Part shown: one piece after another, positions 7,778 to 58,886 of the stretch
How the letters are laid out: every line of letters starts with the position of its first letter
Position numbering within the stretch: position 1 is the first letter of the stretch
NCBI GenBank assembly: GCA_003220795.1
Contig: QHTK01000047.1
Location: 222 to 64,221, forward strand
Source: Gemmatimonadota bacterium
GTDB lineage: Bacteria > Gemmatimonadota > Gemmatimonadetes > Gemmatimonadales > GWC2-71-9
Length of the DNA: 64,000 bases
Direction of reading: 5' to 3'
The notes under the pieces: model-generated
Databases searched by the model: none
What the model saw: only the letters and a program-made list of their open reading frames with translations
Told to the model about the DNA's origin: nothing
Made by a program: the position numbers and the translations under genes

Positions 7778-7822
7778 GGGACCTCCCTCATCGGGTCGGC
7801 AACGAAGGTGCAAAACGTATGC

Positions 7823-8485: not shown

Positions 8486-8574
8486 GGAGTCTCCTCCAGA
8501 AGAGGTCTCCATGACGGTATCGCGTCAGGCTTGCGCGGGCTTAAGGAGATCGTGACAAGGTGATGATGGCCGGA

Positions 8575-33372: not shown

Positions 33373-33377
33373 GAGAA

Positions 33378-33450
33378 TGGAGCGGAGGGGATTCGAACCC
33401 CTGACCCCCTGGTTGCAAACCAGGTGCTCTCCCAGCTGAGCTACCGCCCC
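33378..33450 (-). tRNA. tRNA-Ala (anticodon UGC)
   Basis: The reverse complement is GGGGCGGTAGCTCAGCTGGGAGAGCACCTGGTTTGCAACCAGGGGGTCAGGGGTTCGAATCCCCTCCGCTCCA. It folds as a cloverleaf with the G3:U70 alanine identity pair, anticodon loop TTTGCAA and T-loop GGTTCGAATCC. CCA is not encoded. Confidence 0.95.
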
Positions 33451-33528
33451 GTGAGGCTAGTAAGATAGCAAACGGAGAACTGACGCACAGACGCACAGCG
33501 GTGAACAGGTGACCGTGGCCGGCCGTGC

Positions 33529-39826: not shown

Positions 39827-39834
39827 AGAGTACC

Positions 39835-44388: not shown

Positions 44389-45353
44389 AGGCGTTCGTCA
44401 CCGGCGGGACGGGGTTCGTCGGCGCCCACCTCGTGCAGACGCTGCTGGCGCGGGGCGCGGAGGTGCGCTGCCTCGTACGCAACCCCGCCAAGGCCCTGGC
44501 CCTCGGCTGGCGGGACGTGCGCCTCGTCCGCGGCGATCTGGACGACGCCGCCGCGCTGGCGGAGGGCTGCGCGGGAGCGGAGCTGGTGTTTCACCTCGCC
44601 GGCCGCATCAGCGCCCGCGATGTGCGGGAGTTCATGAGCGCGAACCGCGACGGCACGGCCAGCGTGCTCGAGGCCGCCTCGCTCCAGCCGCCCCAGCGCT
44701 TCGTGCTCGTCTCATCGCTCGCCGCCGGCGGCCCCACCACGCCGGGACATCCGATCGACGAGGAGCGCCGCCCCGCGCCGGTGACGCCCTACGGCCAGAG
44801 CAAGCTCGCGGCGGAGATCGTGGTCCGGGCGATGCCGTTCCCCTGGACCATCGTGCGCCCCCCGGCCGTGTATGGCGAGCGGGATCGCGAGACCCTCAAG
44901 GTGTTCAAGTTGGCACGCCGGGGACTCGTGCCCGTGTTCGGTGACGGATCCCAGGAGCTGTCGGTCGTCTACGCAGGAGACCTGGCGGCTGCACTGGTGG
45001 CCGCGGCAACCTCCCCCGGAGCGGCGCGTAAGGTATACTACGCGGCGCATCCCGCGGTCACGACGAGCGCCGCACTGGTACGAGCTGTGGGCCGCGCGGT
45101 GGGACGTGAGCCGCGCCTCCTACCGCTGCCGGCGCCGGTCGCGCGCGTGATGCTCTGGGCCATCGGATCGCTCGCTCACCTCGCAGGCCGGGCGACGGTG
45201 CTGTCGGCCGACAAGGCGGCCGAGTTTCTGGCTCCCGCCTGGACCTGCCGACCGGACGCGCTGATGCGGGACACGGGATGGTCCGCCGCTACCGATCTGA
45301 ACGCCGGGTTGCAACGCACGGCGGACTGGTACCGGAGGGAGGGGTGGCTGTGA
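44385..45353 (+). CDS. NAD(P)-dependent epimerase/dehydratase-type extended SDR, candidate ketoceramide reductase
   Basis: It has the Rossmann motif VTGGTGFVGAHL and a catalytic YGQSK. The GTG overlaps the upstream stop (GTGA). Confidence 0.85.
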   Translation: MKAFVTGGTGFVGAHLVQTLLARGAEVRCLVRNPAKALALGWRDVRLVRGDLDDAAALAEGCAGAELVFHLAGRISARDVREFMSANRDGTASVLEAASLQPPQRFVLVSSLAAGGPTTPGHPIDEERRPAPVTPYGQSKLAAEIVVRAMPFPWTIVRPPAVYGERDRETLKVFKLARRGLVPVFGDGSQELSVVYAGDLAAALVAAATSPGAARKVYYAAHPAVTTSAALVRAVGRAVGREPRLLPLPAPVARVMLWAIGSLAHLAGRATVLSADKAAEFLAPAWTCRPDALMRDTGWSAATDLNAGLQRTADWYRREGWL

Positions 45354-46306
45354 GCGACACGTCACACGACGCCACGACGGCGCGCCCCAAGGATACCTGG
45401 GCGACGTGGCGCCGTGCCGTCGTGCGGCGCTTCACCGCCGTCGATCTCGTCACCCTGTTGTACGTAGCGGTCGCCACCGTCGCCGTCCTGGCGTTCACCG
45501 CCGACGACCGCACGGGCTGGGACTGGCTGCTGCTGGCGCATGCACTGCTGGTCGCGCTCGTGCTGCTCGCCCCGCGGGCGCGCGAGGCGGGGCGCGTCGG
45601 ACGGTTCCTCGGCGACTGGTACCCTATGCTGTTGCTCGGCGGCCTGTACGCCGAAGTGGGCGTGCTCAACGTCGACGTCGGCTACCAGCACGACGTTACG
45701 ATTCAGCGCCTCGAGTTGTGGGTGTTCGGCTCGCAGGTGTCGTACCGCTGGATCCGCGAGTGGCCCAACCCGGTGTTCTCGTGGATCATGCACATCTGCT
45801 ACATCGCCTACTACGCGATCTTGTGCGCCTCGCCGCTCGGCCTGTGGCTCAGCGGGCGGCGCGACGCCGCGCGGCGCACGATCTTCGCCGTGATGATCAC
45901 GTTCTATCTCTGCTACGTCGTGTTCCTCTTCTTTCCCGTGGCCGGGCCGCGCTACGCCTTCGACCTCGCGCACAACGCCGCCACCGAGATCTGGCCGGCG
46001 CGCGCCACCCAGTGGCTGCTCGACCGCGGGGACTCCTGGGGCGCGGCCTTCCCGTCGTCGCATGTGGCCGCCGCCGTGGTCGCCACGATCTGCGCGCTGC
46101 GCTACTGGCGGCCCCTCGGGCTCGCGCTCGTGCCGCTGACGCTCGGGCTGGTCCTGTCGGTGGTGTACGGGCAGTTCCACTACGCGGTGGACGCCGTGTC
46201 GGGCCTGTTCGTGGCCGGCGCCGTACTCGCGTCGCAGTACGTGTACGGCGCGGAGCCGGAGAAGGTCGGTGCCTCGCTGCCCGCCGGGAGCTGGGAGCGG
46301 GCCTGA
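45350..46306 (+). CDS. polytopic PAP2_C-type protein, sphingomyelin / inositol-phosphorylceramide synthase-like head-group transferase
   Basis: It has about six TMs, FPSSHVAAA and QFHYAVDAVSGLFVAG (the H/H/D motifs of the SMS/AUR1 branch), and lacks the KxxxxxxRP motif of true phosphatases. The GTG overlaps the upstream stop (GTGA). Confidence 0.7.
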   Translation: MSDTSHDATTARPKDTWATWRRAVVRRFTAVDLVTLLYVAVATVAVLAFTADDRTGWDWLLLAHALLVALVLLAPRAREAGRVGRFLGDWYPMLLLGGLYAEVGVLNVDVGYQHDVTIQRLELWVFGSQVSYRWIREWPNPVFSWIMHICYIAYYAILCASPLGLWLSGRRDAARRTIFAVMITFYLCYVVFLFFPVAGPRYAFDLAHNAATEIWPARATQWLLDRGDSWGAAFPSSHVAAAVVATICALRYWRPLGLALVPLTLGLVLSVVYGQFHYAVDAVSGLFVAGAVLASQYVYGAEPEKVGASLPAGSWERA

Positions 46307-46314: not shown

Positions 46315-46387
46315 GGCTGCCCGGTATCGGGGTTCCACGGAGCGACTGTGTGCTTGTCGCGTAGTGGAACCCCGATACCGGGCAGCC
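46315..46387. terminator. perfect 24-bp inverted repeat with 25-nt loop between convergent operons (bidirectional terminator candidate)
   Basis: GGCTGCCCGGTATCGGGGTTCCAC (46315-46338) pairs with GTGGAACCCCGATACCGGGCAGCC (46364-46387). There is no U-tract on either side. The right arm abuts the stop at 46388. Confidence 0.65.
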
Positions 46388-46990
46388 TCAACGACTGACG
46401 CTCGCGGCTCGCGAAGCGACCGTGTCGAGGTCTCCCCCGAGGGCGTCCATGCGGCGTTGGAACTGGAGATCGATCAGCAGCAACCCGACGACGTACGCCG
46501 CCAGATTCACCACAAACACGATCGTGAAGATCCGCGGGTACGGCAGCCAGATTCCGAAATAGAGCGCGAACCGCTTGACCCCCGGGTCGAGCCCCGAGCG
46601 ATCCGTGATACTCGTCATGAGCAGAATCGCGACCAGCGCGAGCAGAACGAGCTTGACCGGAACGATCCCGGCCGCGGCGAACCCCGCGAAGATGACCGCT
46701 TCGGACGCCCGGTCGAGGCGTGTGTCGAGCCGCCGCCCCGCGTCGGAGGCGAGCCCGAACTCACGGGCGATCCCGCCGTCGATCCCGTCCAAAACCTGCC
46801 CCAACGCCATCAGGCCGAGGCCCCAACCCAGGCGACCGGCGGCGACGCTCGCGCCCGCGACGACGCTCACCCCGAAGGCCGCCCAGGTCACCTGCGCGGG
46901 CGACAGACCGAGTCTCAGGTGCGCGAACCGCAGCAGCGGGCGGATCGCCCGGTCTAATGCCTTGCCCAGTACAGGAGCAAATTCGTACAT
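46388..46990 (-). CDS. CDP-alcohol phosphatidyltransferase-family protein (minimal, ~200 aa)
   Basis: The signature [26 protein letters not shown] fits DGxxARx8Gx3Dx3D. The ATG at 46990 (MYEFAPVL) overlaps the upstream gene by 37 nt. Confidence 0.8.
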
Positions 46991-47391
46991 AGCAGGACGG
47001 CGAAGAGGACCCCTTCCTTCACCTTGTCGGGAATCCCCGTGAGCCACCCGCGGGTCACCCAGGGGGAGTAGGGGTACAGCGGCATCTTCTCGAAGCGGAC
47101 ACTGTAGTCCATGGCCACGTGGATCGCGAAGAACACCAGCGGGATGACGGTTCCGAGTAACCAGCACAGCGGCGTGATCCAGAGCAGCGCCACCGGCTCC
47201 TGCAACGACGAGCGCCAGTAGTAGCCGCGCTTGTCCACGAGCCCCACCGCCCGCAGGTAGAAAGGCGCCTTCACCGCATGGTCGACATCCACCCCGATCC
47301 CGAAGGCGTACGCGAGGGCGGCGTCGCGTCCGTGTAACTCCATCGCCTGCACGCCGAGCGTGGTGGCGAGGATGTGCGTGAAGACGGTCAC
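46954..47391 (-). CDS. small membrane protein, DUF457/YdjM-like metal-dependent hydrolase fold (tentative)
   Basis: A GTG at 47391 overlaps the upstream stop (GTGA). It has [13 protein letters not shown]...GVDVDHAV...HVAMD, a His/Asp pattern like the YdjM family. Confidence 0.5.
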
Positions 47392-48389
47392 GGCGCGGTG
47401 GCGCCCTCCCCGGCCGGCTGCCGTCCCGCCAGCCAGACGAGCGCGAGCCCGACGCCGATCCACGCCATGTCGCGCAGCCGGCTCACGATGGCGGTATAGA
47501 CGCCCAGCGCGGGATCGAGGCCCAGGAGCTGAAAGAAGAGGTACAGCGAGCCCTCCTTCGTGCCGACTTCGAAGGGCACGAAGAAGATCGTGTTCTGAAT
47601 CAGCGAGGTGAGCCCGCCGATGGCATACGCCTGAAAGTAGGTCATGTGCAGGCCCACGCCGAGACCGATCAGTACATACTCGAGCATGAAGATCGAGCGA
47701 CTGAGATACTCGAGGAGGAGCGCCTGAAAAAATCGCCCCGGTCGCCTGTGATAGAACTCCGTGATCTGCACGTCCATCTGGGCTAGCGTGGCCCGCAGAG
47801 ACTCGAGGCGCCGCGCCAGGCGGTGGAGCAAGGGGAGGCGGTGGATCAGGTCGAGCGCGCGCTCCAGCACGCCACGGCGGTGTCCCGTTAGCAGCAGCCA
47901 GCACAGAAGCGCCAGCACCACGAAGGCGACGGCCAACCCGGCGAGCAGCGCCGCGTGAGGGGGCAGGAGGAGAGCCCCGAGCACGATCGCCGTCAGGAAG
48001 CTCAGCAGCATGCCGAGCGTGTGCAGCATCTGATAGATCACGACCGAACCGGCCGCGCGCCGCACCCCGAGCCAGCGCGCCGCCGCCGCGATCTTGAACG
48101 GCTCACCCCCCACGTTGACCATCGGCGTGACGAAGTTGAGCGAGAATCCGGCGACGGTGATCGCGTACGCGCGCCAGAACGGCGGGCGAATCGGCTCGTC
48201 GGCCATGATCAGCCACCACGCCGACGTGTTGCAGGCGTAGACCACGCCGTACAGGATGAGGATCGGAACGAAGATCCATCCCGTGTGCTCCGCGTCGGCG
48301 AGCAGCCGCGCCACACCGATACGCGCCACCAGGTAGGCGAAGATCGCCGAGCCACAGACGAACAGCAGCGCTTGCAGCTTGCGGCTCAC
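47388..48389 (-). CDS. UPF0104 / lysyl-PG-synthase-TM (MprF flippase-like) domain membrane protein
   Basis: It has about eight TMs and [19 protein letters not shown], the conserved TPxxxGGEPxK motif. The GTG at 48389 overlaps the upstream stop (GTGA). Confidence 0.75.
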
Positions 48390-49411
48390 GCGTTTTCCGG
48401 GATGGCGACCCTGCAGCCGGTGTTGGCGGCCTGGTAAGCATGCTCGACCACGACCGCGACGCGGCGGATGTCCTCGAGGTAAGGGGCGGCGGCGTGGACC
48501 GGATCGCCCCGGTCGAGGGAGGCGATGAACGACGCGAAGAGGCCGGCGAACCAGCGGTGGTACGCCGCCTTGTCGAGCTCGGCCGAGAAATCGTGTCGCT
48601 CGAGCCTGCCCCCGCGCTCGAGCCGCAGCTCGCCGCCGACCCACTCGATGGCGCCGTGCTCGCCCGCGAAGCGGATGCGATTCTCGCGCTGGCGCGCAGC
48701 CCAGGTGAAGAACATCGTGACCAGCCGCTCGGGGTACTCGAAGTGCACCGACGCGGTGTCCTCGACCTCGTAGGCGCGGTGGCGCAGGCGGCCGGTCCAG
48801 GCGCTCACCGCGGCGGGCAGCCCCGCGACGTCGAGCATCTGGTAAATGAGATGGGTGCCGTGGTCGAGCAGCACGCCGCCCCGCCCCGCCGCGCTCGTCC
48901 CGCGCCACGGCGTCCCGCCGGCTTCACGGCCGGGGTCAGCGGTAAGCCGATAGACCGCGAGCTCGGCGAGGTGCCAGCGCCCGATCGCACCCTCGCGCAA
49001 CCATTCCTTCACTTTGACCCACACGGGGTTGAACCGGTACTGGTGACACGGCATCACGATCCGGCCGTGCGCGCGCGCCGCGGCGGCGATACGGTCCGCT
49101 TCGACCCGCGTGAGCGCGACCGGCTTCTCACAGACGACGTGGTAGCCTCGCTCGAGGCCCCAGAGGGTGAGGTCGAGATGCGAGGCCGTCGGCGTACAGA
49201 TGTCGATGAAGTCGAGTGGCCCTACCCGGGCGAGCTGCTCGGGGTGCGAGAGCAGCGGGATGCCGTCGACCGGCGGCACGTCGACGGCGCTGTCCACGAC
49301 GGCGACGATGTCGATGCGCGCACGCACGCCGGCCCCCGTCCGCAGGGCGGGGAGATGCGACTGCCGCGCCGTGCCGCCCGCCCCGATGACGGCACCCCGG
49401 TACCGCTGCAC
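48386..49411 (-). CDS. Gfo/Idh/MocA-family NAD(P)-dependent oxidoreductase
   Basis: It has the N-terminal Rossmann GAVIGAGGTARQSHLPAL, CEKPVALT and a C-terminal alpha/beta domain. The GTG at 49411 lies 1 nt after the upstream stop. Confidence 0.85.
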   Translation of the reverse strand: MQRYRGAVIGAGGTARQSHLPALRTGAGVRARIDIVAVVDSAVDVPPVDGIPLLSHPEQLARVGPLDFIDICTPTASHLDLTLWGLERGYHVVCEKPVALTRVEADRIAAAARAHGRIVMPCHQYRFNPVWVKVKEWLREGAIGRWHLAELAVYRLTADPGREAGGTPWRGTSAAGRGGVLLDHGTHLIYQMLDVAGLPAAVSAWTGRLRHRAYEVEDTASVHFEYPERLVTMFFTWAARQRENRIRFAGEHGAIEWVGGELRLERGGRLERHDFSAELDKAAYHRWFAGLFASFIASLDRGDPVHAAAPYLEDIRRVAVVVEHAYQAANTGCRVAIPENA

Positions 49412-49412
49412 G

Positions 49413-50327
49413 TCAGGTGAAGCGGGCGTAGGCATTGCGCTCGTGCTCGAGCGCGTCGCTGAGCGCCGTGGCGTTCCATTCATGCATCAGCAGCAGTACC
49501 ACGAGGAGCAGACTCATCGGCACCGCCTCGGCCCACAGGAACGCCGAGATGTGGCCCGCCACCGCCGCCGCGCCGAGCAGCAGGAAACGGATGTTCTGGC
49601 CCAGCCAGCTGCACAGCGGCAGCAGCACCTCCTGACGCTCGCGGTACTCCTCCCGGAAGGCCGGGGGCACGCTGCGCCCTCCGGCTCCGCCGGCCCGCAG
49701 CAGCCGCAGCAGCTTGACCGAGCGGGGGAACAGCTGCGACTGCCGCACGACGTAGTCCCGGTACACGCGCGCGCCGAAGCGCTCCAGCACCGTGCCTGCG
49801 GATCCGGCCTCCAGATCTTCGGGGAGATCGAGCTCTCCTGCCTTGCCCGTGCCCAAATCGAGGAAGGCATTGCGGATGAAATCCACCGCGGCGCTCTGGT
49901 AGGTGTGGGCGAGACCGGCGAGCGCGACCAGCAATACGCCCGCCCACCACACACCGCCGTGCATCAGCCGGTACATCAGGTGGAAGTACAGATTGACGAA
50001 TCGCAGGTTGTCGTTGATGCCGTCGAGCGCCCGGCCGAACCGAGTCGAGGTGCCGCGCAGCCGGGCGAGCTGGCCGTCCGCCGAATCGAACACGTCCGAC
50101 ACGATGAAGAGCACGAACCCGATGACGTCGATCCAGCGGTCCTGGTACACGAACAGATGGCCCGCCACCAGGCCCACCAGCAGCGACCACAGCGTGACCT
50201 GGTCGGGCGAGATGCCAGTCGAGTAGAGCGCCCGCGCGATCCGGATCCCGATGGGCCGGAAGAAGCGCAGGTCGAGCCATTCCTCGACCGCGCGACCCTT
50301 ATCCGACAAATCGTTCCGCGGCTTCAC
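49413..50327 (-). CDS. CDP-alcohol phosphatidyltransferase-family protein (304 aa)
   Basis: The signature DSADGQLARLRGTSTRFGRALDGINDN matches the family motif, and it has multiple TMs. Confidence 0.85.
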   Translation of the reverse strand: MKPRNDLSDKGRAVEEWLDLRFFRPIGIRIARALYSTGISPDQVTLWSLLVGLVAGHLFVYQDRWIDVIGFVLFIVSDVFDSADGQLARLRGTSTRFGRALDGINDNLRFVNLYFHLMYRLMHGGVWWAGVLLVALAGLAHTYQSAAVDFIRNAFLDLGTGKAGELDLPEDLEAGSAGTVLERFGARVYRDYVVRQSQLFPRSVKLLRLLRAGGAGGRSVPPAFREEYRERQEVLLPLCSWLGQNIRFLLLGAAAVAGHISAFLWAEAVPMSLLLVVLLLMHEWNATALSDALEHERNAYARFT

Positions 50328-51633
50328 CGAGTACGTCCTTCATGGTGGCGAGGGCGCCCATCGCCTGGTCCTCCTCGATGACCAGGGGCGGGTTGATTCG
50401 CACCTCGGGATTGTAGATCATCGCGAGCACGCCGCGCGACAGCAGGGTGTCGAAGATCCATCGCGTCGCTTTCTTGTCGAGCAGTTTGCGGGTCCCCGGC
50501 ACCACGAGGTCCAGGCCGATCAGCAAGCCGCGGCCGCGCACGTCCGACACGATCGGCAGCTCCGATTCCCAGCGCCGCAGCTCGGCCAGCATCTTGGCGC
50601 CGAGGCGCCGGGAGTGCTCGACCAGCCCATCCTCGATGATCGTCTCGACGGTGATGCGGGCGGCCGCCGCCGCGAGCGGATTCCCGCCATAGCTCGACGA
50701 GCTGCCGCTTGGATTGGCGAACGGCTTGGCGAACGCAAGCTCTTCGCGCGCGATGATGCCGCTCATGGGGAAGCCGCCCCCGAACCCCTTGCCGATCGTG
50801 ATCACGTCGGGAATCACGTCCTCGTGCTCGATGGCGAACATCTTCCCGGTGCGCCCGAACCCGGTGATCATCTCGTCGCAGATCAGGAGCGCGCCGAGCT
50901 CATCCGCGAGGAGACGCAATGCCCGGAGGTAGCCGGGCGGCGGCACGACATTGCCCGCCGTGCCCTGGATCGGCTCGACGATGATCGCCGCCACGTCCTT
51001 GGTGGTCTCGAGCTCCACCTTCTGCCTGAGGAACTCCACGCAGTGCCATTCGCACGACGGAAAGGTCTTGTCGAAGGCGCAGCGCGCGCACGCCGCGTAG
51101 GGTGAGAGATAGGCGCCCGGCATGAGCGGCCCGAGCGCGTGCTTGAAGCTCGCGCCGAGCACGGGGAGCACGCCGCCGGTCTTGCCGTGGAAGCCGCCCC
51201 AGAATCCCAGGACCTCGGTATGCCCGGTGCGCGACTTCGCCAGGCGGAGCGCTGCCTCCACCGCCTCCGCACCGCTCGAATAGAATTGCGTCCGGTTCAA
51301 GTCGCCGGGCGCGAGCTCCGCCAGCAGCTGGACCAGCGCCGCGCGGTGCTCGGTCGTGAAGCTGCCGACGTGAATTCGGGCGATCTGGCGCTGCAGCGCC
51401 GCCACGTAGCGGGGATGGGCGTACCCGAGGCTCGCGACGCCGACCCCCGCGAGCAGGTCGATGTAGCTGTTGCCGTCCACATCGTACAACACGGCGCCTT
51501 CGCCGCGATCGATCGAGAGCTGGCTGAATAGCGCTACGCTCTGGGTCCCGGGAGCGAGATACAGCGCCTCGCGGTCGAACAGGGCCTTCGACTTGGGGCC
51601 GGGAACCTGAATCCTGCGGATTGTATGGGTCAC
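50299..51633 (-). CDS. class-III (ornithine/GABA-type) PLP aminotransferase
   Basis: It has SGAEAVEAALRLA, EPIQGTAGNV, LICDEMITGFGRTGKMFA and TIGKGFGGGFP (PLP lysine). The GTG overlaps the upstream stop (GTGA). Confidence 0.9.
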   Translation of the reverse strand: MTHTIRRIQVPGPKSKALFDREALYLAPGTQSVALFSQLSIDRGEGAVLYDVDGNSYIDLLAGVGVASLGYAHPRYVAALQRQIARIHVGSFTTEHRAALVQLLAELAPGDLNRTQFYSSGAEAVEAALRLAKSRTGHTEVLGFWGGFHGKTGGVLPVLGASFKHALGPLMPGAYLSPYAACARCAFDKTFPSCEWHCVEFLRQKVELETTKDVAAIIVEPIQGTAGNVVPPPGYLRALRLLADELGALLICDEMITGFGRTGKMFAIEHEDVIPDVITIGKGFGGGFPMSGIIAREELAFAKPFANPSGSSSSYGGNPLAAAAARITVETIIEDGLVEHSRRLGAKMLAELRRWESELPIVSDVRGRGLLIGLDLVVPGTRKLLDKKATRWIFDTLLSRGVLAMIYNPEVRINPPLVIEEDQAMGALATMKDVLGEAAERFVG

Positions 51634-52472
51634 GCGTGTTTCCGGTGTGCGAACCGATGAGTGACATAGTCGGCAATGGCTCGCGCCGCTTCGTCACGGA
51701 ACGGCGCGAAGCTCGGCCAGTCGTTGATGTCGATGAGCACGGGGCGATCGGGCTCGGGGAACGCGACGTCGCCCCCGAACACCTCGAGCCCCAGGATCGC
51801 CGCCGCTTCGAACGCCAGCGCCTTCAGCCGATTCTCGTCGATCTTGGGCCGCTCGCCCGCCAACCCCGCGTCCGAGCCGTACCAACGGAAGAAGCGCCCG
51901 TCGGTCACCCCGTAGAACTTCACGATCGGGCCGGGCACGTGCTCCTGCAACGCGACCCAGGGGATGCCGCGCGCCGTGAACGCGTGCAGCTCGTCCGCGA
52001 TGCGCTCGCGCGAGGTCGCCACGACGTCTTCGGGACGCTCGGCGTGCACGTCGCCCCGCTTGATCCACACCTTGCGATCGTCCGGGTAAAAGGCGTCGAC
52101 TTGCTCCGGCGACAGCGGCGCCGAGCTGGCGAGGATGAGCGTGCGAGGGAACGACAGGGTGCTGTCCCCGAGCCGCTTCACCAACCGGTAGCGGTGACAG
52201 TTGAGCGCGCTCGACGGGCGGTTGACGACCACCGCTCCATCGCTCTCCAGCGGCATCAGCTGCTCCGCGGCGAGCGACCCCTGACACATGTTCAGGTACA
52301 ACGCCGCGACCGGCAGGCGTCCCTGCTCGACCTCGCGCTCGCTGGTCTTGACGGCGTTCCACCCGCTCCTGGCGAGCTCCGAGACGGTGGCGTCCAGGAT
52401 CGCGGTGTCGTTCACCCGATGTTGCATCGGCGAATACGACGGGCTGCGATAAATCGCGACCAGTTGCGTCAA
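51630..52472 (-). CDS. ATP-grasp-fold protein, inositol-phosphate-kinase (ITPK1)-like or RimK-like
   Basis: The C-terminal GLEVFGGDVAFPEPDRPVLIDINDWPSF resembles the FGxDxx...VIDINxFPG strand-loop of ITPK1-type ATP-grasp enzymes. The assignment is tentative. Confidence 0.6.
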   Translation of the reverse strand: MTQLVAIYRSPSYSPMQHRVNDTAILDATVSELARSGWNAVKTSEREVEQGRLPVAALYLNMCQGSLAAEQLMPLESDGAVVVNRPSSALNCHRYRLVKRLGDSTLSFPRTLILASSAPLSPEQVDAFYPDDRKVWIKRGDVHAERPEDVVATSRERIADELHAFTARGIPWVALQEHVPGPIVKFYGVTDGRFFRWYGSDAGLAGERPKIDENRLKALAFEAAAILGLEVFGGDVAFPEPDRPVLIDINDWPSFAPFRDEAARAIADYVTHRFAHRKHA

Positions 52473-52499
52473 GGCGGTCTCGCTCCCCGGGGTCCGGAC

Positions 52500-53213
52500 T
52501 CAGGCCTCGCGCGCGGCCAGCCACGCGTTGGCAGTTTGCAGATCTGATGGACGATCGATATCGATGATGCGCGGCACCTCGACCACTCCCACCCGCCCAC
52601 CGTCGGCGACCACGCCGGCCAGGTACCGTCGCATCTTGTGCAAGCCGCGGTCGACGGCGTCGGCCGCAGCGTCGCGGGCCCCGGCGCTCAGGCCGTAGAC
52701 GCCGCCCGTGACGCAGCGCGGGTGGAGCGGCTTGTCGCTGACGGAGCGGACGAAACCGTCTTCCCCTGTGCTCACGTACACTGGAGACTCGTCATCCACG
52801 TACGGCGTCACAGCGAGCACCATGTCGGCGCCCTCGGCCAGCTGGCGCTCCGCCCCGCTGTAGACCGCTTGCCAGTCGTGCGGTCGCATCACCGTGTCCA
52901 CCATACTGCAGAACACCGGGCCCGGCGCCACCGCGTGGAGCCCCTCGACCAGCGTGTGGAGCGACGAGGGGGTGCGGCACTCGATCACCTTAAGGGGGCG
53001 CCCAAACCGGGTTCCGTCAAGCACGCGCCGCACCATCGGGAAGTCCGCACGAACTGCACACGTGAGACTGGTGCACCCGAGGGCCTCGAACGTCTCGAGC
53101 AAGCGCACAATCTGCGGCCTCCCGGCCACCTGCACGAGGGGCTTGGGAGGCGATCCCTCTCCTGCGGTTGCGAGCCGCGAGCCTTCCCCGCCCGCGAGGA
53201 TCAAACCGTGCAC
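52500..53213 (-). CDS. nucleotidyltransferase (sugar/alcohol-phosphate NTP transferase, GlmU/LicC/IPCT-like)
   Basis: It has the N-terminal (GTG)HGLILAGGEGSRL signature and a Rossmann-like 237-aa body. Confidence 0.85.
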   Translation of the reverse strand: MHGLILAGGEGSRLATAGEGSPPKPLVQVAGRPQIVRLLETFEALGCTSLTCAVRADFPMVRRVLDGTRFGRPLKVIECRTPSSLHTLVEGLHAVAPGPVFCSMVDTVMRPHDWQAVYSGAERQLAEGADMVLAVTPYVDDESPVYVSTGEDGFVRSVSDKPLHPRCVTGGVYGLSAGARDAAADAVDRGLHKMRRYLAGVVADGGRVGVVEVPRIIDIDRPSDLQTANAWLAAREA

Positions 53214-53214
53214 G

Positions 53215-53841
53215 CTAGTCGAGGATCCTTTCGATCTCGGGGAGCCGCGCGATGCGCGCCGTGGGGTCGGGCCCCGGCGGCTGCTCCCGGTCCGGCGGCG
53301 CCAGCCAGCACGTCCGTAGCCCGAGCCCGGCGGCCCCCCCGATGTCCGCCTCGAAGTTGTCGCCCACCATCCAGGCGCGGTCCGCGGGCGCCCCGCCCAG
53401 CGCGCCCAGCGTCTCGCGGAAGATCCGGGGATCGGGTTTGGCCGCGCCTACCACGGCCGAGTCGCTGACTGCCGTGAACAGCCGGGCCAGGCCGAGCTCG
53501 TCCAGACAGGGCGCCAGGTTCCCCGTGAAATTCGAAACGATGCCAAGACGGTAGCGACGCGCGAGGCGCTCGAGCACGGGCTGGTTGCGCGTCGCGATCG
53601 CACGTGCCTGGGCATGAAACTGCTCCGCCATCCGCCCCGCATCGACCGCCGCGCGGTCGGGCACGAGCTCGAGCAACAGGCTGGTCTGCTTCTCGATCAT
53701 CTGCCGGAAGCCGAAGCGGCGGATGTCGGCCGTCCGGGCCAGTGTCTCGTCCGCCCGTTGGTAGAGCGGCTCGAACGCCGCATAGCCGAGCGCGCCGCCG
53801 GCCGCCCGGTACGCCGCGTGGAAGCGCGGGCTCCAATGCAC
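53215..53841 (-). CDS. HAD-superfamily hydrolase/phosphatase (subfamily IA-like)
   Basis: It has motif II (LGIVSNF), motif III (AKPD) and motif IV (VGDNFEADIGGA). Motif I (LFDFGGTLD) lies in frame upstream of the first canonical start, so the true 5' end is probably near 53886-53901 (see findings). Confidence 0.8.
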   Translation of the reverse strand: MHWSPRFHAAYRAAGGALGYAAFEPLYQRADETLARTADIRRFGFRQMIEKQTSLLLELVPDRAAVDAGRMAEQFHAQARAIATRNQPVLERLARRYRLGIVSNFTGNLAPCLDELGLARLFTAVSDSAVVGAAKPDPRIFRETLGALGGAPADRAWMVGDNFEADIGGAAGLGLRTCWLAPPDREQPPGPDPTARIARLPEIERILD

Positions 53842-53893
53842 GCCATCGGCATCGAGGGTCCCGCCGAAGTCGAAGAGGACGACCTCAGTGGTC

Positions 53894-54982
53894 CTAGTGA
53901 TGCCCGTGGCCCGCGCCGTGCTCGTGCATCGGCAGCTTCATCGGCATGGCGTCCGCCATCCGCATCTCGTGCCCGCCGCTCTGCCGCATGTAGTGGCGGT
54001 AATCCTGCTGATACAGCGAGTCCGAGCGGTCGGCGGGTGGCCACTCGACGCCACGGTCGGGCACGAACAGCCCGCCCACGACTCCCATCCCGCCGTCCGG
54101 GACCGCCTGGCCGGTAGGATTGTCGTAGTAGACGGTCACGCGGTAGCGGTGGTCCGGAGCGATGTGGGCGCCGAGTCGCGTCCAGCCGTACAGGCGACTG
54201 ATCGGGACGGAGTGGATGTGCCCCACCGAGTCGGCGATCGGCGCGGCCCGGTAGATGACCTGCCCCGCCGTCACGTCGACGAACTCGATCAGCCGTCCGT
54301 GGTCGTGCATGTGGCCACCCAAGCCGACGATTTTCCCCGGCACGGCCGGGCTCCCCTCGTAGGAGCGCTGCGAGCGCCCCGGCGGGAGCGCGAAGGACTT
54401 GTCCCCCACCGGGAAGGCGACGTCCATCTGCCAGGGCGACGCGCGGAACAAGGGCCAGGGCCGGCCCGTCGGCGTGAAATCCATCACGAGCCGCACCCGC
54501 GCCTCGTGGTAGGTAACCGGAGTGAGGTTCTCGACCATCGCGCTCGCGACGACGTGCTCGCCGCGGCGCAGCGGCAACCCGAACAGGAGGCCCGGCAGCC
54601 GTACGGCGCCGGTCTCGTGTCCTGCCGCGAGTAACCGGCGCGAAATCGGGAGAAACAGCTCGCGGTGGTCCGGGTCGATCAGGTTGAAGTGATGGATGAG
54701 CTCGTCGGACAGCTCGCGACCGGCGCTGTCTACCACCGCGACGCGAAACCCGTGGATGTAGCCGTCGCTCGGAATCTCGAGCGTCGCGACGGGCGGCTGC
54801 GCCAGCGCGTGGTGCGGCGTCCGGGCCGGGAGCTCCAGGGGCGCGAGATCGATCACCAACGCACCGCGCCCCGGATCGGTGAAGATGCGAGCCCCGGCGG
54901 GGTCTGGCGCACCAGGAGAGCGCCCATCGCCCGGCCCGAGTGCGAGCAGCAGGGCGACCGGCAGCAAGCGATGTCCCGTCAT
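53894..54982 (-). CDS. secreted hypothetical protein, possible PHM/DBH-like copper monooxygenase fold with His/Met-rich C-terminal tail
   Basis: It has a signal peptide. The ordered HH (ELIHHFNL) ... H (TYHEARV) ... HxH (GGHMHDHG) ... M (DGGMGVV) spacing is reminiscent of CuH/CuM sites. The tail is HEMRMADAMPMKLPMHEHGAGHGHH. The ATG overlaps the upstream stop (ATGA). Confidence 0.45.
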   Translation of the reverse strand: MTGHRLLPVALLLALGPGDGRSPGAPDPAGARIFTDPGRGALVIDLAPLELPARTPHHALAQPPVATLEIPSDGYIHGFRVAVVDSAGRELSDELIHHFNLIDPDHRELFLPISRRLLAAGHETGAVRLPGLLFGLPLRRGEHVVASAMVENLTPVTYHEARVRLVMDFTPTGRPWPLFRASPWQMDVAFPVGDKSFALPPGRSQRSYEGSPAVPGKIVGLGGHMHDHGRLIEFVDVTAGQVIYRAAPIADSVGHIHSVPISRLYGWTRLGAHIAPDHRYRVTVYYDNPTGQAVPDGGMGVVGGLFVPDRGVEWPPADRSDSLYQQDYRHYMRQSGGHEMRMADAMPMKLPMHEHGAGHGHH

Positions 54983-55902
54983 GGCGGGGAAGTGTAATAG
55001 CGGCCGCCGATCTGAGGCAACCGACCCTCCCCGAGCCCGTCGCCCGAGTGGAGGCGCTGCACGGCCGCCACCACTGCGGCGGGCCGCTCCTCATAGACGA
55101 AGTGGCCCGCGCCGGGCACGGTGTCCACCGCGAATGAGCGGAGCAGTCCCGCGAGCGTGGCCACCTCCTGCGGGCTCACGCCGGACCCGCGGCCGACGGT
55201 GCCCACGACGAGGCGCACCGGGCAGCGGATCTCCCCGAGGTGCGGCGCGAGGCGATCGCTCTCGTGCGCCCGCGCCATCGCCAGATAGGCCTTGAGCGTC
55301 CCAGCGAGGTCGCGCGCGGCCCCGGCCGTGTAGCCTTCGACGACCTGATCGGTCACCCACGTCGTGTCGCCCGATGCGGCGATCAGACCGCGCCGGACCT
55401 TGGCTCGGACCAATCGCTCGCCGCCGAACAGCTTGATCCACGGCGCGAGCTGAATCGCCCGACGGAAGCCGCGGGTCGTGGCGGCCTCGGCGGGGCCGCC
55501 GTCGAGTGACACGATACCCCGAACCAGATCGGGCCGCCGATACGCGAGCCGGTAGGCGATCGCTGCGCCGACCGAATGCGCGACGACGATCACGTCGCCC
55601 ACGCCCAGACGGTCGAGCGCGGCGGCCACTCGATCGGCCTGCGCAGTGAGCGAATAGTCAGCGTGCTCGGGCCGACCCGAGGTGCCGATGCCGAGCGGCT
55701 CGATCACAATCGTGCGATACCCCGCCTCGACGAGCCTCGGCAGTACAGTGCGGTAGCCAAACGCCGACCCGAACAACCCCGGAATGAGCACAACGGGGTC
55801 GCCCACTCCCTCGACCGTTACCCATACTGACTCGGCCGGCGCGAGGGCGATTGAGAAGGCGCGCGATGTATCCGCGAGCAGCAGCACGATGAGGAGCCAC
55901 AT
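54979..55902 (-). CDS. alpha/beta-fold hydrolase
   Basis: It has the oxyanion HG region VVLIPGLFGS, the nucleophile elbow VVAHSVGA and a C-terminal GAGHFV. Confidence 0.85.
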   Translation of the reverse strand: MWLLIVLLLADTSRAFSIALAPAESVWVTVEGVGDPVVLIPGLFGSAFGYRTVLPRLVEAGYRTIVIEPLGIGTSGRPEHADYSLTAQADRVAAALDRLGVGDVIVVAHSVGAAIAYRLAYRRPDLVRGIVSLDGGPAEAATTRGFRRAIQLAPWIKLFGGERLVRAKVRRGLIAASGDTTWVTDQVVEGYTAGAARDLAGTLKAYLAMARAHESDRLAPHLGEIRCPVRLVVGTVGRGSGVSPQEVATLAGLLRSFAVDTVPGAGHFVYEERPAAVVAAVQRLHSGDGLGEGRLPQIGGRYYTSPP

Positions 55903-55905
55903 CGG

Positions 55906-56415
55906 TCACTCCGCAGGAAGCAGACGGCGAGCGACGGTGAGCACGACGAACGCGACGGTGCCGGCGAGCAGGAGCCAGGTCGGCATGTCCACCAAGACGC
56001 CGAATCCGGCGATCAACAGCAAGCGCGGGAAGCGTCCGAACGCAACGGCCGCGAGGAACTTGGAGAGTGGGTAGCGCGAGAGCGGCGCGAGAATCCTCAC
56101 CGCAGAGTCGGGGATCGGCGAGAAGATCACGATAGCCGTCGTCCAAAAGGGCGCGCGCGAGAAGGCGTCGATACTCCACCGTACGGCTTTCCCGGCCTTC
56201 AACGCCGAGACCTTCGGCGACTCGGCCGCCCAATCGACGAGCCGGTAGTTTACCGCCTCGGCCAGCGACGCGGCCGCCGTCCCTACCAGTGCCAGCACCC
56301 ACGCCGGATAGAAGCGGGCGTAGTAGAGGAGGGTGGCTTCGAACGCCGTCGGGAGCAGCGGCGAGAGCGGGCCGTGCACGAACAGCGCGACCAGAAAGAA
56401 AGTCCCGAGCTTCAT
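55906..56415 (-). CDS. DedA/VTT (SNARE-associated) family membrane protein
   Basis: FSPIPDSAVRILAPLSRYPLSKFLAAVAFGRFPR resembles the VTT-domain re-entrant loop. The ATG at 56415 overlaps the upstream stop (ATGA). Confidence 0.65.
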   Translation of the reverse strand: MKLGTFFLVALFVHGPLSPLLPTAFEATLLYYARFYPAWVLALVGTAAASLAEAVNYRLVDWAAESPKVSALKAGKAVRWSIDAFSRAPFWTTAIVIFSPIPDSAVRILAPLSRYPLSKFLAAVAFGRFPRLLLIAGFGVLVDMPTWLLLAGTVAFVVLTVARRLLPAE

Positions 56416-56870
56416 GCGAGCAGTTCCGCATAGCGCCACACCACGACTGCGAACACCGCGCCTTCGAGGATCCATGCCCATGGCTGCCGGTAGTAGCCTG
56501 CATACATTGAGCGGCCCCAATAGCCGGTGTTCTTCCATAGGTCGAGGGAAAAGCGGCGTTCGCTGAACGGCAACAGCAGCGGGATGCCGGTGTCGGTCGG
56601 CAGATCCGCCACGACATGCAGCACGATGCTCGCGAGCGCGAGCAGGCCGAGCCACGGACCGAACAGGACGGTGGCCAGCGCCCCGACAGCTGCGCAGAAC
56701 GGCAGGCTGTGACTCCAGGTACCGTGGAACTCCGGGGCAGCCCACCCGACCCGGATCAGAAGCGAGTCCGCGTTGGGAAGGAATTGGGCGGCGGTGACCA
56801 CGGCGAAGGTCTCTGGCCGCGGATCGATCGAGGCGATCGCCAGGGCGATGCCGAAGTGGCCGAATTGCAT
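56412..56870 (-). CDS. DUF457/YdjM-like membrane-bound metal-dependent hydrolase
   Basis: FHGTWSHSLPF, LHVVADLPTD and IPLLLPFSERRF match the conserved His/Asp and LLxPFS features of this family. It is the first gene of the minus-strand operon. Confidence 0.65.
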   Translation of the reverse strand: MQFGHFGIALAIASIDPRPETFAVVTAAQFLPNADSLLIRVGWAAPEFHGTWSHSLPFCAAVGALATVLFGPWLGLLALASIVLHVVADLPTDTGIPLLLPFSERRFSLDLWKNTGYWGRSMYAGYYRQPWAWILEGAVFAVVVWRYAELLA

Positions 56871-56925: not shown

Positions 56926-58824
56926 TCAAGTGGAGCGATTCTCGCGGTACCGCTTGGCCTGCCCCGGGGTGACCATTTCCTGAAGCAGGATGCTACGAAC
57001 GATCGGCGCGGTGAAGACATAGCCGCGCGCGTCGGCCGCGAGCCAGCGCTCCCACTCGAGCAGATCGAGCGCCGGCTCGACGGCGGTTCGCTCGAGCCGG
57101 GTCGCCGTGGCGAGCTGCCCGACGTCCACCCGCTCCCCCAACGCGGCGGCGGCACCGAGCAGCTGTTGGGCCGCTGCAGGAAGCTGGCGGAACCGTAAGC
57201 AGACCACGCCCACCACTGCGGGGGGCAGGTCGTTCGGAAGCGAGTCGACGAGCGTGCGCTGGGGCGACGGCCACGCCGGCGCGTCGGGCGCGAGCTTGTA
57301 GCCACTCGCCACCGCCTCGAGCATCGCCACGGCGAGCAGCGGAAGGCCCGCGGTATCGTTCTCCAGCCGCCGGGCGAGCCGGTCGGCATCCGGCGCCGCA
57401 TAGGCCGGCAGCGCCCAGGCAACGAGCGCGCGGAGGGCGACGGGGTCGAGCCGGCCCAGCCTGATCACTTCGCCTTCCAGCTCGCGCCCTACGCGCGCCC
57501 GCAACTCGTCGAGCCGGCCGCTCTCGGGCGCGCCCCGCGCGAGACCGAACAGCAGCAGGACGGGCCGGCGCGTGGCATCGCGGGCCAGCCCGGGCAGCGA
57601 CTCGAGCGTGGCGGCATCGATCCACTGAGCGTCGTCGAGGGTGAGGAGCACCGGTCGCTCATGGGCGGCGGCGACCACTGCGTCGCGCACCGCCTCCCCC
57701 ACCGGCAGTGCCGCGTCCACGCGCCGGAAGCGGACCGCTAGGTCGGGAGCGAGGCTCCCCAGAGCCGCAAGCGCGTCGGGGGGGGCGCCCGCGATCCCGG
57801 GGGCGTCGGCCAGACCGGCGGCGAGCAGCCCCGCGACAGCGCTCCAGTCCTTCCTCTGATCGACGGCGACGGCCCTGGCTGCCGCCACCGTCGCGTCGTC
57901 GAGACGAGCCCGAGCGACGAGTTCCTCGATGAGCCGGCTCTTCCCCTCGCCGGGCTCACCCTCGACGATGATCACCTGCCCCCGCCCGCTCTTGGCCCGC
58001 TCCCACGCCGCCGCCAGCGCCGCGAGCTCGGAGCCCCGTCCGCACAGCAGCGGGCGCGGCCGCGCGGCCGGCGGCGCCGCGAGCACCCGGCGGCCCACGC
58101 GCGCCTCGCGGATCCGATCGATCAGTCGCACGGTCTCGGGGCCGGGCGCGGTCCCGACCTGATCGGCCAGCACGCCCGCGACGTCGTCGGCCACGCGCAG
58201 CGCGGCCGCCCGGTCGCCCGCGAGCGCCAGGGCGCGCATCGCCGCCCGGGCCGCCGGCTCGGACGCGCGATCGACGTCGCGTGCCCGCAACGCGGCCGTT
58301 GCCGCCGCCGCCGGGTCGCCCCGCGCCAGCAACCCGTCGGCGTATCGTATCAGCGCGTCGACGCTCTGCGCGCGCCACCGGACCCGCTCGCCACCGAGCC
58401 AGTCTTCGAACTGACTGGCGTCGGGAATCGAGAGCCCTTCGAGAAAGTCGCCCTCGACGAGTGCGGCCGCGCCTGGCCAGTCGCCGCGCGCGTACAACTC
58501 CGCGAAGCGGTCGCAATCGAGCGTCACGCCGTCCGCGCCGAGGCCGATCTGGTCGACGTCCGCCTGCACCTGGTCGTCTCCCAGGGCGCGCCGGAAGACG
58601 CGCAGTGCCTCGCTCAACGAGTGGCGCGCCTGCTTCTCGTCGCGGTCGCTCCAGAGCAATCCTACGAGGTGCTCGCGGGTGCGCCGCCGCCGCGGGCTGC
58701 GTGCGAGGTACACGAGCAGCGCGACGTGCTTGCGCCACAGGAGCTCGGGCGGCGCGTCGGCGCCGGCCACCGTCACCTGCACCGGGCCGAGCACGCGGCA
58801 GTAGACGCCTGCGGGTCGAGACAT
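56926..58824 (-). CDS. SARP/AfsR-type regulator: winged-helix + BTAD + P-loop STAND ATPase + helical C-terminal region
   Basis: It has an N-terminal YCRVLGPVQV...LLVYLARSPRRRRTREHLVGLLW (OmpR-type wHTH), a BTAD helical region and Walker A (GEPGEGKS). I take the start at MSRPAGV (58824). Confidence 0.8.
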   Translation of the reverse strand: MSRPAGVYCRVLGPVQVTVAGADAPPELLWRKHVALLVYLARSPRRRRTREHLVGLLWSDRDEKQARHSLSEALRVFRRALGDDQVQADVDQIGLGADGVTLDCDRFAELYARGDWPGAAALVEGDFLEGLSIPDASQFEDWLGGERVRWRAQSVDALIRYADGLLARGDPAAAATAALRARDVDRASEPAARAAMRALALAGDRAAALRVADDVAGVLADQVGTAPGPETVRLIDRIREARVGRRVLAAPPAARPRPLLCGRGSELAALAAAWERAKSGRGQVIIVEGEPGEGKSRLIEELVARARLDDATVAAARAVAVDQRKDWSAVAGLLAAGLADAPGIAGAPPDALAALGSLAPDLAVRFRRVDAALPVGEAVRDAVVAAAHERPVLLTLDDAQWIDAATLESLPGLARDATRRPVLLLFGLARGAPESGRLDELRARVGRELEGEVIRLGRLDPVALRALVAWALPAYAAPDADRLARRLENDTAGLPLLAVAMLEAVASGYKLAPDAPAWPSPQRTLVDSLPNDLPPAVVGVVCLRFRQLPAAAQQLLGAAAALGERVDVGQLATATRLERTAVEPALDLLEWERWLAADARGYVFTAPIVRSILLQEMVTPGQAKRYRENRST

Positions 58825-58886
58825 GGCGCCGGGGATTATCGGGCGCAGTGCGGTACAGAGCAAGCGCCGGTAGATTCAGCACGCGT

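Follow-up and report, generated by a model that had tools for sequence, protein, structure and literature searches.

A gene core conserved across bacterial phyla beside a ceramide operon of soil Gemmatimonadota: a candidate pathway for an inositol-derived, probably amino-cyclitol, lipid head group

Mapping of bacterial sphingolipids and inositol lipids has only recently begun, and beyond Bacteroides and Caulobacter little is known of the enzymes that make their head groups. In Bacteroides thetaiotaomicron the genetically characterised genes BT_1522-BT_1526 encode an AUR1-like inositol phosphoceramide (IPC) synthase, a PIP synthase, a PIP phosphatase and myo-inositol-phosphate synthase (MIPS) (PMC9246714). 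Bacteroides vulgatus and Prevotella make inositol phosphodihydroceramide (PI-DHC) without these genes and carry a putative 'alternative inositol lipid cluster' of unverified function beside MIPS, which comprises genes for an NTP transferase, a CDP-alcohol phosphatidyltransferase and a HAD hydrolase, with a lysyl-phosphatidylglycerol-synthase-like neighbour (Heaver et al. 2022, PMC9246714). Caulobacter crescentus makes ceramide (di)phosphoglycerate through CpgA-D, in which the IPCT-like CpgD makes CDP-glycerate (PMC12275187). We analysed a 64,000-nucleotide stretch of a Gemmatimonadota genome (contig QHTK01000047.1, assembly GCA_003220795.1; hereafter the window), in which thirteen genes on the minus strand, numbered g1 to g13 from 56870 to 46388, converge on a ceramide operon. 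Seven of them form a conserved core, and on balance we favour the reading that this core encodes a Kennedy-type pathway in which a CDP-activated inositol derivative, probably an inosamine, would be put onto ceramide and flipped.

The core consists of g5-g11, all on the minus strand. It encodes a HAD-IA phosphatase (g5, 53215-53841; Pfam E 2.5e-13, also matched in NCBIfam), a MobA-like nucleotidyltransferase (g6, 52500-53213; NTP_transf_3, PF12804, E 4.8e-12) with a weak N-terminal IPCT/DIPPS match, a member of an unclassified ATP-grasp family, used here as the marker of the core (g7, 51630-52472; family profile against the PDB, E 1e-6), a class-III (GABA-AT-like) pyridoxal-phosphate aminotransferase (g8, 50299-51633; Aminotran_3, E 3.8e-93), a 300-aa CDP-alcohol phosphotransferase in a 304-codon frame (g9, 49413-50327; CDP-OH_P_transf, PF01066, E 2.7e-12), a Gfo/Idh/MocA NAD(P) oxidoreductase matched in Pfam (g10, 48386-49435, the start being set by homology to the related locus L001, with an alternative at 49483) and an LPG_synthase_TM/UPF0104 flippase-like membrane protein (g11, 47388-48389; Pfam E 6.4e-26, and 42.8 bits against TIGR00374 with its cut-off of 43.2). 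Transmembrane prediction found no membrane segment in g5, g6, g7, g8 and g10, and classed g9, g11, g12 and g13 as membrane proteins. A 266-aa open reading frame (ORF) at 49480-50280 was rejected as a wrong-frame shadow of g9.

To compare loci we scanned genomes with an alignment of g7 as profile and took the best 80 of at least 597 genomic matches; presence, absence and order of genes were read from tblastn of the window proteins against the loci, with 83 loci in the presence counts and matches accepted from 30% coverage. The loci are mostly contigs of metagenome-assembled genomes (MAGs), and our functional statements rest on homology, fusions and gene neighbourhood. A first synteny look-up, seeded with the protein P0017, returned near-identical contexts only, the cross-phylum contexts coming from the g7 scan. 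All-against-all ORF clustering in this high-GC DNA (about 70% G+C over the window) gave many apparently conserved clusters that were antisense or alternate-frame shadows and were disregarded. Three loci are probably mis-binned contigs: by gene content and identity L033 (filed as Hyphomicrobiales) resembles Gemmatimonadota, L055 (filed as Bifidobacterium) Verrucomicrobiota and L078 (filed as [Ruminococcus] lactaris) Bacteroidota.

The core is kept in order in eight phylum-level groups, namely Gemmatimonadota, Ignavibacteria, Verrucomicrobiota (without the LPG_synthase_TM gene), Myxococcota, Desulfobacterota, Rokubacteria/Methylomirabilales, Elusimicrobiota and one Bacteroidota bin, and we put its recurrence at at least seven bacterial phyla. 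Among the Desulfobacterota carriers is an isolate, Desulfoferrobacter suflitae DRH4 (L083). The phosphatase g5 is present in 73 of the 83 loci, and g11 is kept in most loci, Verrucomicrobiota excepted. The best-conserved member is g8, with 50-60% identity across phyla and a position directly downstream of g7 in every locus mapped; g8 and g10 are either both present or both absent, with L059 as the single exception among loci long enough to judge. The window proteins are nearest to those of MAGs of soil Gemmatimonadota/Gemmatimonadales, g9 being 73-93% identical in more than 100 soil Gemmatimonadota clusters and the best related locus, L004 from Gemmatimonadetes bacterium AG28, encoding proteins 89-97% identical to those of the window. 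At 62-93% identity, close relatives preserve the arrangement in full, Spt operon included, though with some variation. Because the order is kept at such identities in relatives and the order of the core is kept across phyla, the arrangement is far beyond chance. The thirteen genes had originally been predicted to form a single operon; as a conserved unit this holds for g5-g11, while g12-g13 are a separate pair and g1-g4 are lineage-specific.

Natural fusions join members of the core: nucleotidyltransferase to g7 in six representative clusters, HAD to nucleotidyltransferase to g7 in P0208, and g7 to CDP-alcohol phosphotransferase. These fusions indicate that the HAD, nucleotidyltransferase, ATP-grasp and CDP-alcohol phosphotransferase activities work together, and they support the CDP-alcohol logic that had been proposed for the locus. 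The transferase has undergone more diversification than have the soluble enzymes. Longer g9-like phosphotransferases (375-430 aa) occur in Myxococcota, Desulfobacterota and Rokubacteria, and related ORFs of 375-500 codons, in some loci as two copies, were seen in Verrucomicrobiota, Desulfobacterota, Myxococcota and Methylomirabilales (L055 19536-20804; L083 17889-19178; L062 7255-8565 and 13200-14327; L080 12979-14481 and 16574-18067).

Which alcohol is activated can be narrowed, on the sequence comparisons, from a general CDP-alcohol to a putative inositol derivative. A sub-core that has neither aminotransferase nor oxidoreductase is found in eight of the nine Bacteroidota loci and in two Ignavibacteria loci. 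In one of them, L058, the genes for nucleotidyltransferase, g7, CDP-alcohol phosphotransferase, LPG_synthase_TM protein and HAD phosphatase are followed by a bona fide MIPS gene (Pfam 3.8e-108), and with this MIPS as probe we identified MIPS also in the flanks of 11 loci in which both of those genes are present: eight from Ignavibacteria and one each from Methylomirabilales, Gemmatimonadales and a Bacteroidota bin. The sub-core equals the putative alternative cluster of Heaver et al. (PMC9246714). As in that cluster, g6, g9 and g5 are encoded together with matching Pfam domains, in synteny with L058, L072 and L074, and g5, g6, g9 and g11 are homologous to the genes of these three loci at 27-37% identity and in the same order; the sphingolipid context and the proposed CDP-inositol logic are likewise shared. 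Unlike the window, the Bacteroidota cluster is without aminotransferase and oxidoreductase, and unlike that cluster the window has no adjacent MIPS. The available text of Heaver et al. does not name 'ATP-grasp', 'BVU_RS13100' or 'BVU_RS13110', yet L058 has a g7 homologue between the nucleotidyltransferase and phosphotransferase genes. Heaver et al. propose the HAD protein as IPC synthase, whereas here it is predicted to be a soluble HAD-IA enzyme, a better fit to a small-molecule phosphatase. A Bacteroidales MAG (L074, 1161-15400) has within 15 kb Spt, two tandem bCerS-like genes, an extra CDP-alcohol phosphotransferase, the sub-core in the same order as in L058, MIPS and a DUF4833 gene, and is the most compact sphingolipid-plus-inositol locus among those examined.

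Both phosphotransferases, g9 and the PIP-synthase-like g13 (46388-46990, minus strand, 200 aa; CDP-OH_P_transf, E 1.1e-10), score best against inositol-phosphate-type enzymes, always below curated cut-offs. Equivalog models of the PIP synthase/archaetidylinositol-phosphate synthase type, the best-scoring families for both, give 58.3 and 39.2 bits with g9 and 50.7 and 42.8 bits with g13 against cut-offs of 180 and 170, so that neither protein is a member; for g9 the best NCBIfam matches are archaetidylinositol-phosphate synthase, PIPS and DIPPS, all sub-cut-off, and the best PDB matches AF2299 and PIPS. The sub-threshold NCBIfam matches of g10 include inositol 2-dehydrogenase, and its PDB matches are sugar and cyclitol dehydrogenases; PDB searches with g6, g8 and g10 returned generic family members only and nothing on substrate. 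Given the adjacency of MIPS, the match of the sub-core to the Heaver cluster and the best scores of the phosphotransferases, an inositol-derived alcohol appears to be the simplest reading.

Dehydrogenase/aminotransferase pairs turn CHOH into CHNH2 in aminocyclitol and kanosamine pathways. The routes to scyllo-inosamine (streptomycin, rhizopine) and, through NtdC/NtdA/NtdB, to kanosamine combine a Gfo/Idh/MocA dehydrogenase with a pyridoxal-phosphate aminotransferase, the two acting on a cyclitol or sugar phosphate and the Ntd set adding a HAD phosphatase; their aminotransferases are of the DegT/StsC type and not class III, and what they yield is antibiotics or signals rather than head groups of lipids. 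By analogy, g10 and g8 would convert a ring CHOH to CHNH2 and give an amino-cyclitol, probably an inosamine.

The acceptor is suggested by the plus-strand operon that converges on the thirteen genes. It encodes an Spt-like alpha-oxoamine synthase (42071-43276; best NCBIfam match Spt (CFB) at 534 bits, cut-off 640, with BioF at 411 and Kbl at 399), a GNAT-type, bCerS-like N-acyltransferase (43282-44388; weak Acetyltransf_1 match, 28.2 bits, cut-off 20.7), a CerR-like NAD-dependent reductase of the epimerase/dehydratase family (44385-45353; sub-threshold HpnA/OleD-type SDR matches, and Pfam Epimerase in L001) and, as last gene, a PAP2_3 membrane protein with six transmembrane-like segments (45344-46306; PF14378, E 5.6e-19). 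The PAP2_3 gene, which may start at 45278 or 45344, is conserved in L001-L014, and its product is a candidate head-group transferase of the IPC-synthase type. The GNAT and reductase genes, named bCerS-like and CerR-like by family and position, lie beside Spt, and this trio recurs in Gemmatimonadota and Verrucomicrobiota; with the Spt and bCerS-like pair of one Bacteroidales locus, the bCerS-like gene accompanies Spt in three phyla. Around the point where the bCerS-like gene of the window should begin (43273-43290) there is no ATG, GTG or TTG; a CTG at 43282, 6 nt past the Spt stop, aligns with the GTG start of the L001 orthologue and suggests a non-canonical start.

The retrieved flanks contain Spt and/or a bCerS-like gene in 16 of the 42 loci from Gemmatimonadota, in 8 of the 10 from Verrucomicrobiota (among them all six of at least 15 kb) and in one Bacteroidales locus. 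In three phyla the ceramide genes lie at most 10 kb from the core, and in two loci they are co-directional with it: L020 carries on one strand Spt, bCerS, CerR, HAD, nucleotidyltransferase, g7, aminotransferase, CDP-alcohol phosphotransferase, oxidoreductase and LPG_synthase_TM genes, and L055, also on one strand, CDP-alcohol phosphotransferase, HAD, nucleotidyltransferase, g7, aminotransferase, oxidoreductase, bCerS and CerR genes. Because the head-group and Spt/bCerS genes are syntenic, and co-directional in these two loci, ceramide is the likely acceptor at the window locus. The original prediction had joined the two operons into one lipid locus, which this synteny in relatives bears out, and fusions and synteny together lend support to its general reading of activation as a CDP-alcohol, transfer, tailoring and flipping. 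In Ignavibacteria loci, L043 (7447-9967) among them, the nucleotidyltransferase and ATP-grasp genes are separated by genes for MlaE, an MlaF-like ABC ATPase and MlaD, an insertion that links the head-group module to retrograde or anterograde phospholipid transport and points to a membrane lipid. The conserved flippase-like gene, the MlaEFD insertion and the link to Bacteroidota inositol phosphoceramide (PMC9246714) all favour a lipid-linked over a soluble product, as had been supposed.

What can be read directly from the loci is their gene content, a conserved core of seven genes, the fusions and a linkage both to MIPS and to ceramide genes. Further comparison places the locus beside, rather than within, the described systems. 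The g13 protein and its partner g12 (46954-47391, minus strand), a 145-aa membrane protein with invariant His/Asp residues and no Pfam match, travel as a pair in Gemmatimonadales and in the Ignavibacteria loci L067 and L073. Together with the PAP2_3 protein they probably provide a second, B. thetaiotaomicron-like route to inositol phosphoceramide via phosphatidylinositol, in which g13 and the PAP2_3 protein could fill the roles of BT_1523 and BT_1522. Unlike that system, g13 reaches 26.8 bits against the BT_1523 equivalog model (cut-off 350), the pairing of g12 with g13 has no BT counterpart, and no PgpA-type PIP phosphatase or MIPS was found in the window. CpgA-D resemble the locus in having a dedicated cytidylyltransferase for a sphingolipid head group encoded beside Spt/bCerS/CerR; they differ in their alcohol, a phosphoglycerate, in having a ceramide kinase, and in being without this type of CDP-alcohol phosphotransferase, aminotransferase, Gfo/Idh/MocA oxidoreductase or ATP-grasp protein. 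The hyperthermophile IPCT/DIPPS route also proceeds from CTP together with inositol-1-phosphate to CDP-inositol, through a CDP-alcohol phosphotransferase and then a phosphatase, but makes a soluble product with a bifunctional enzyme, in contrast to the membrane-lipid context and far-sub-cut-off matches seen here. Since the cut-offs for PIPS, the BT_1523 equivalog and IPCT/DIPPS are all missed and no MIPS is adjacent, we treat the locus as one that would work like the Bacteroidota and Caulobacter systems but is not a member of them. Our literature searches found no description of the aminotransferase/oxidoreductase module, its ATP-grasp protein, inosamine lipids or Gemmatimonadota sphingolipid genes, and nothing relevant on follow-ups to the alternative inositol pathway or on Desulfoferrobacter lipids; the claim that the gene combination is undescribed stands for the full combination and not for the sub-core.

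In the pathway that we infer from sequence, every substrate, the order of steps, the kinase role of g7 and the amino-cyclitol product are deduced. Inositol phosphate is assumed to come from a MIPS encoded elsewhere in the genome, which gives Ins-3-P, and the five soluble enzymes (g5, g6, g7, g8 and g10) would prepare the donor from it. The oxidoreductase g10, as an inositol or inositol-phosphate dehydrogenase, would oxidise one ring hydroxyl and g8 would turn the ketone into an amine to give the inosamine, the two acting at the free or the phosphorylated cyclitol stage. The phosphate would be placed at the right position by g5 and g7, g7 read as a kinase adding the phosphate that g6 cytidylylates, and g5, as an (amino)inositol phosphate phosphatase, either removing a leftover phosphate or acting in sequence with g7 to move it. 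A CTP:(amino)inositol-phosphate cytidylyltransferase activity of g6 would then make the CDP-alcohol, from which g9 would transfer the phospho-head group to ceramide made by the convergent Spt/bCerS-like/CerR-like operon, and g11 would move the lipid product across the inner membrane. Tailoring or handling of the envelope that is specific to the lineage may be added by g1-g4.

The least certain role in this pathway is that of g7. The window protein alone gave no match in sequence searches of Pfam, NCBIfam or the PDB, whereas a profile of 61 family members matched PsnB (1e-6), ITPK4 (1.8e-6), RimK-like proteins (about 2e-4) and ITPK1 (6e-4) in the PDB, aligning with ATP-grasp over residues 68-273 with invariant K138, K185, D248 and N250, which places it in the ATP-grasp superfamily. 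The family is large (890 clusters at 50% identity) and has no name, its Bacteroidota members being annotated only as 'hypothetical' or 'ATP-grasp domain-containing'. Resemblance to ITPK is confined to the C-terminal part; the window protein does not match PF05770 (ITPK), and 8 of the 61 members match it weakly (best E 0.0022), so that membership in ITPK is not indicated. A ligase that acylates or aminoacylates the head group, for example on the amine introduced by g8 to give an N-acyl or aminoacyl cyclitol, would agree with PsnB, an ester- or amide-forming ligase, as top match, with the alignment of RimK-type glutamate ligases across the whole domain and with weak matches of seven members to Pfam RimK and four to TTL. 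Such a ligase seems unlikely to us, for g7 is equally conserved in the Bacteroidota clusters that have no aminotransferase and are reported to yield PI-DHC without modification (PMC9246714), its fusion to the nucleotidyltransferase recurs, as expected of a kinase and its cytidylyltransferase, and its C-terminal D-x-N...PSF motif aligns with plant ITPK4. For the same reasons we favour an ITPK-like kinase of cyclitols or cyclitol phosphates.

The same Bacteroidota clusters bear on whether an amine is made for the lipid at all. The module could make ordinary inositol phosphoceramide or phosphatidylinositol, with g8 and g10 engaged otherwise, for instance in epimerising cyclitols from myo to scyllo, in salvaging precursors or in making an unrelated amine: the sub-core without g8/g10 lies beside MIPS in Bacteroidota and some Ignavibacteria (L048, L051, L058, L068, L071, L072, L081), and for species that carry clusters of this kind the product reported is plain PI-DHC (PMC9246714). 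The conservation of g8, its constant position between g7 and the phosphotransferase or oxidoreductase and its co-occurrence with g10 speak for an integral pathway step rather than a bystander, and we think this alternative improbable. The kanosamine enzyme set of Gfo/Idh/MocA oxidoreductase, aminotransferase and HAD phosphatase would also fit a non-cyclitol amino-polyol, such as an aminopentanetetrol- or serinol-type phosphate, for which a sugar phosphate would be oxidised and transaminated, as NtdABC do in the kanosamine pathway, before CDP activation. Class-III aminotransferases usually use terminal aldehydes or amines, the nearest structures to g8 are GABA and putrescine aminotransferases, and aminopentanetetrol phospholipids, for which no biosynthetic route is known, occur in bacteria and archaea. 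We regard an amino-polyol as quite unlikely, as MIPS is a recurrent neighbour in four phyla, g9 and g13 group with inositol-phosphate-type enzymes, and the neighbourhoods of the compared loci show no conserved enzyme specific to pentoses or trioses. Very improbable, finally, is a soluble phosphodiester solute (an osmolyte or thermoprotectant like di-myo-inositol-phosphate, or its amino form): nucleotidyltransferase, CDP-alcohol phosphotransferase and phosphatase also make up the IPCT/DIPPS/phosphatase logic, but the matches of g6, g9 and g13 to the bifunctional IPCT/DIPPS model NF041135 are 20.9, 38 and 26 bits against a cut-off of 580, with separate genes here and no membership, the flippase-like protein, internal Mla genes and co-operonic Spt/bCerS/CerR point to a lipid, and the hosts are mesophilic soil and gut bacteria. 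A hopanoid-associated function was rejected, the HpnL and HpnA matches being far below cut-off, as was a phosphonate head group: there is no PEP mutase, and the PbfA match reflects general class-III similarity.

Several observations weigh against transfer of an inosamine to ceramide by this pathway. None of the enzymes of the locus reaches the curated cut-off of any specific NCBIfam family, members of the g7 family weakly match ATPgrasp_ST, Ins134_P3_kin, RimK and TTL with no subfamily placement, and a single-sequence AlphaFold2 (AF2) model of g7 had a pLDDT of 41 and is not usable. A tblastn search with the L058 MIPS found no MIPS in the window, which makes inositol supply an assumption here, the known scyllo-inosose aminotransferases belong to the DegT/StsC family and not to class III, and literature searches gave no lipid with an inosamine head group. 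The taxon labels of L033, L055 and L078 are doubtful. Loci from Ignavibacteria, Myxococcota and Desulfobacterota have no Spt within 10 kb, so that the acceptor there may be a glycerolipid.

Turning to the thirteen genes as a whole, coding is unbroken and coding-frame G+C at third codon positions (GC3) is 0.8-0.95 by the ORF listing and frame-specific GC3; together with Pfam and NCBIfam this agrees with the predicted set and order. Ten of the domain labels assigned earlier (g1, g2, g3, g5, g6, g8, g9, g10, g11 and g13) were confirmed outright by Pfam and NCBIfam, while the window proteins g4, g7 and g12 gave no Pfam match: the label of g7 holds by family profile only and that of g4 by predicted fold only, and the 'DUF457-like' label of g12 is weak. 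The 4-nt ATGA or GTGA overlaps at 56412, 54979, 51630, 48386 and 47388 and the spacers of 27 nt (g6/g7) and 52 nt (g4/g5) were found exactly as predicted. The picture of short overlaps and gaps needs to be extended by three larger overlaps that had not been described, of 29 nt (g8/g9) and 23 nt (g9/g10), both kept in L001, and of 37 nt between g12 and g13, where the start of g13 is corrected to the ATG at 46990; 46957 is not a start codon. The 81-nt spacer between the convergent operons contains a perfect 24-bp inverted repeat (GGCTGCCCGGTATCGGGGTTCCAC and its complement, 46315-46387) that abuts the g13 stop. Its predicted hairpin (-70.5 kcal/mol, z -11.1) has no T-run and is unique in the window, and it likely ends transcripts arriving from both directions.

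The accessory end of the cluster encodes, on the minus strand, a small YdjM/DUF457 membrane protein (g1, 56412-56870; PF04307, E 1e-14), a DedA/VTT-domain membrane protein in ATGA overlap with it (g2, 55906-56415; PF09335, E 3e-12), an alpha/beta hydrolase whose hydrophobic N-terminal segment suggests export or membrane anchoring (g3, 54979-55902; Abhydrolase_6/_1, E 1.6e-21) and g4 (53894-54982). Of these, g1, g2 and g4 are confined to close Gemmatimonadales. This end is variable: in L004, the closest relative, the upstream regulator is followed directly by g4 without g1-g3 (5509-8578), and in L001-L003 (1746-5315) genes for an epimerase, a PAP2_3 protein, a second epimerase and an Rce1-like CPBP protease are inserted between g3 and g4. 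Neither the g4 sequence, searched against Pfam, NCBIfam and the PDB, nor a seven-sequence g4 profile searched against the PDB gave a match. An AF2 model of g4 built with 37 homologues (pLDDT 78, pTM 0.73) is a two-domain beta-sandwich whose top 20 Foldseek matches are all PHM/DBH (E 6.5e-10, probability 1.0, TM 0.44-0.54); g4 is predicted to be an exported protein of the PHM/DBH-like copper-monooxygenase fold. The family keeps H57, H98, H224, H226 and M299 invariant and H58 and H97 in at least 90% (pattern HH...HxH...M). A 579-aa metagenomic protein (P0350) contains g3 and g4 in one chain, which may be a genuine fusion or may have arisen by read-through across the ATGA overlap. For g12, two of seven homologues match YdjM/PF04307 at E>=1.5e-4, and hhalign against the g1 family gives a probability of 0.2; a role as membrane metallo-phosphatase is speculative.

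Upstream of g1 by 55 nt lies a minus-strand gene for a SARP/AfsR-like regulator (56926-58863; Trans_reg_C, BTAD and AAA_16 in Pfam), which is directly upstream of the cluster also in L004, L005, L010, L012 and L013 and is likely a pathway regulator or the first gene of the unit. Within 56926-61631 a divergent plus-strand ORF of 1116 codons, with a Ser/Thr protein kinase domain and TPR, overlaps the 5' end of the regulator gene. As both genes are conserved next to the cluster in these five relatives, the lipid locus may be under kinase/SARP control. A consensus scan for promoters and terminators was uninformative, returning no promoter and one terminator-like site inside a gene. The minus-strand genes that diverge from Spt (37760-41923) encode a PAP2 phosphatase whose N-terminus is signal-like, a GadC-like amino-acid/amine antiporter, and a secreted M6 peptidase that carries a He_PIG domain. 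Of these, the phosphatase and antiporter genes are kept next to the Spt operon in L001-L003, and the PAP2 protein could act on lipid phosphates as a PIP-type phosphatase. The window also encodes an apparently unrelated undecaprenyl-diphosphatase BacA (32557-33456) and polyphosphate kinase 1, incomplete at the window end (62250-63983).

Gemmatimonadota are abundant in soil, and the module offers cloneable candidates for the 'alternative' inositol lipid route, itself unverified, in gut Bacteroidota and Prevotella, for a large uncharacterised ATP-grasp family and for a possible amino-cyclitol lipid. We tentatively suggest that the locus may specify an undescribed class of membrane lipid, with phospho-inosamine on ceramide in Gemmatimonadota and Verrucomicrobiota and probably on glycerolipids elsewhere, and that the g7 family may supply the missing kinase of the Bacteroidota route. 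Such an amino-cyclitol lipid, if made, may sit overlooked among the unassigned features of environmental lipidomics. If this proposal is true, the product would be a zwitterionic inositol-analogue lipid, distributed widely across at least seven phyla of soil and sediment bacteria, whose nitrogen-bearing head group would alter membrane charge and which could serve as a biomarker.

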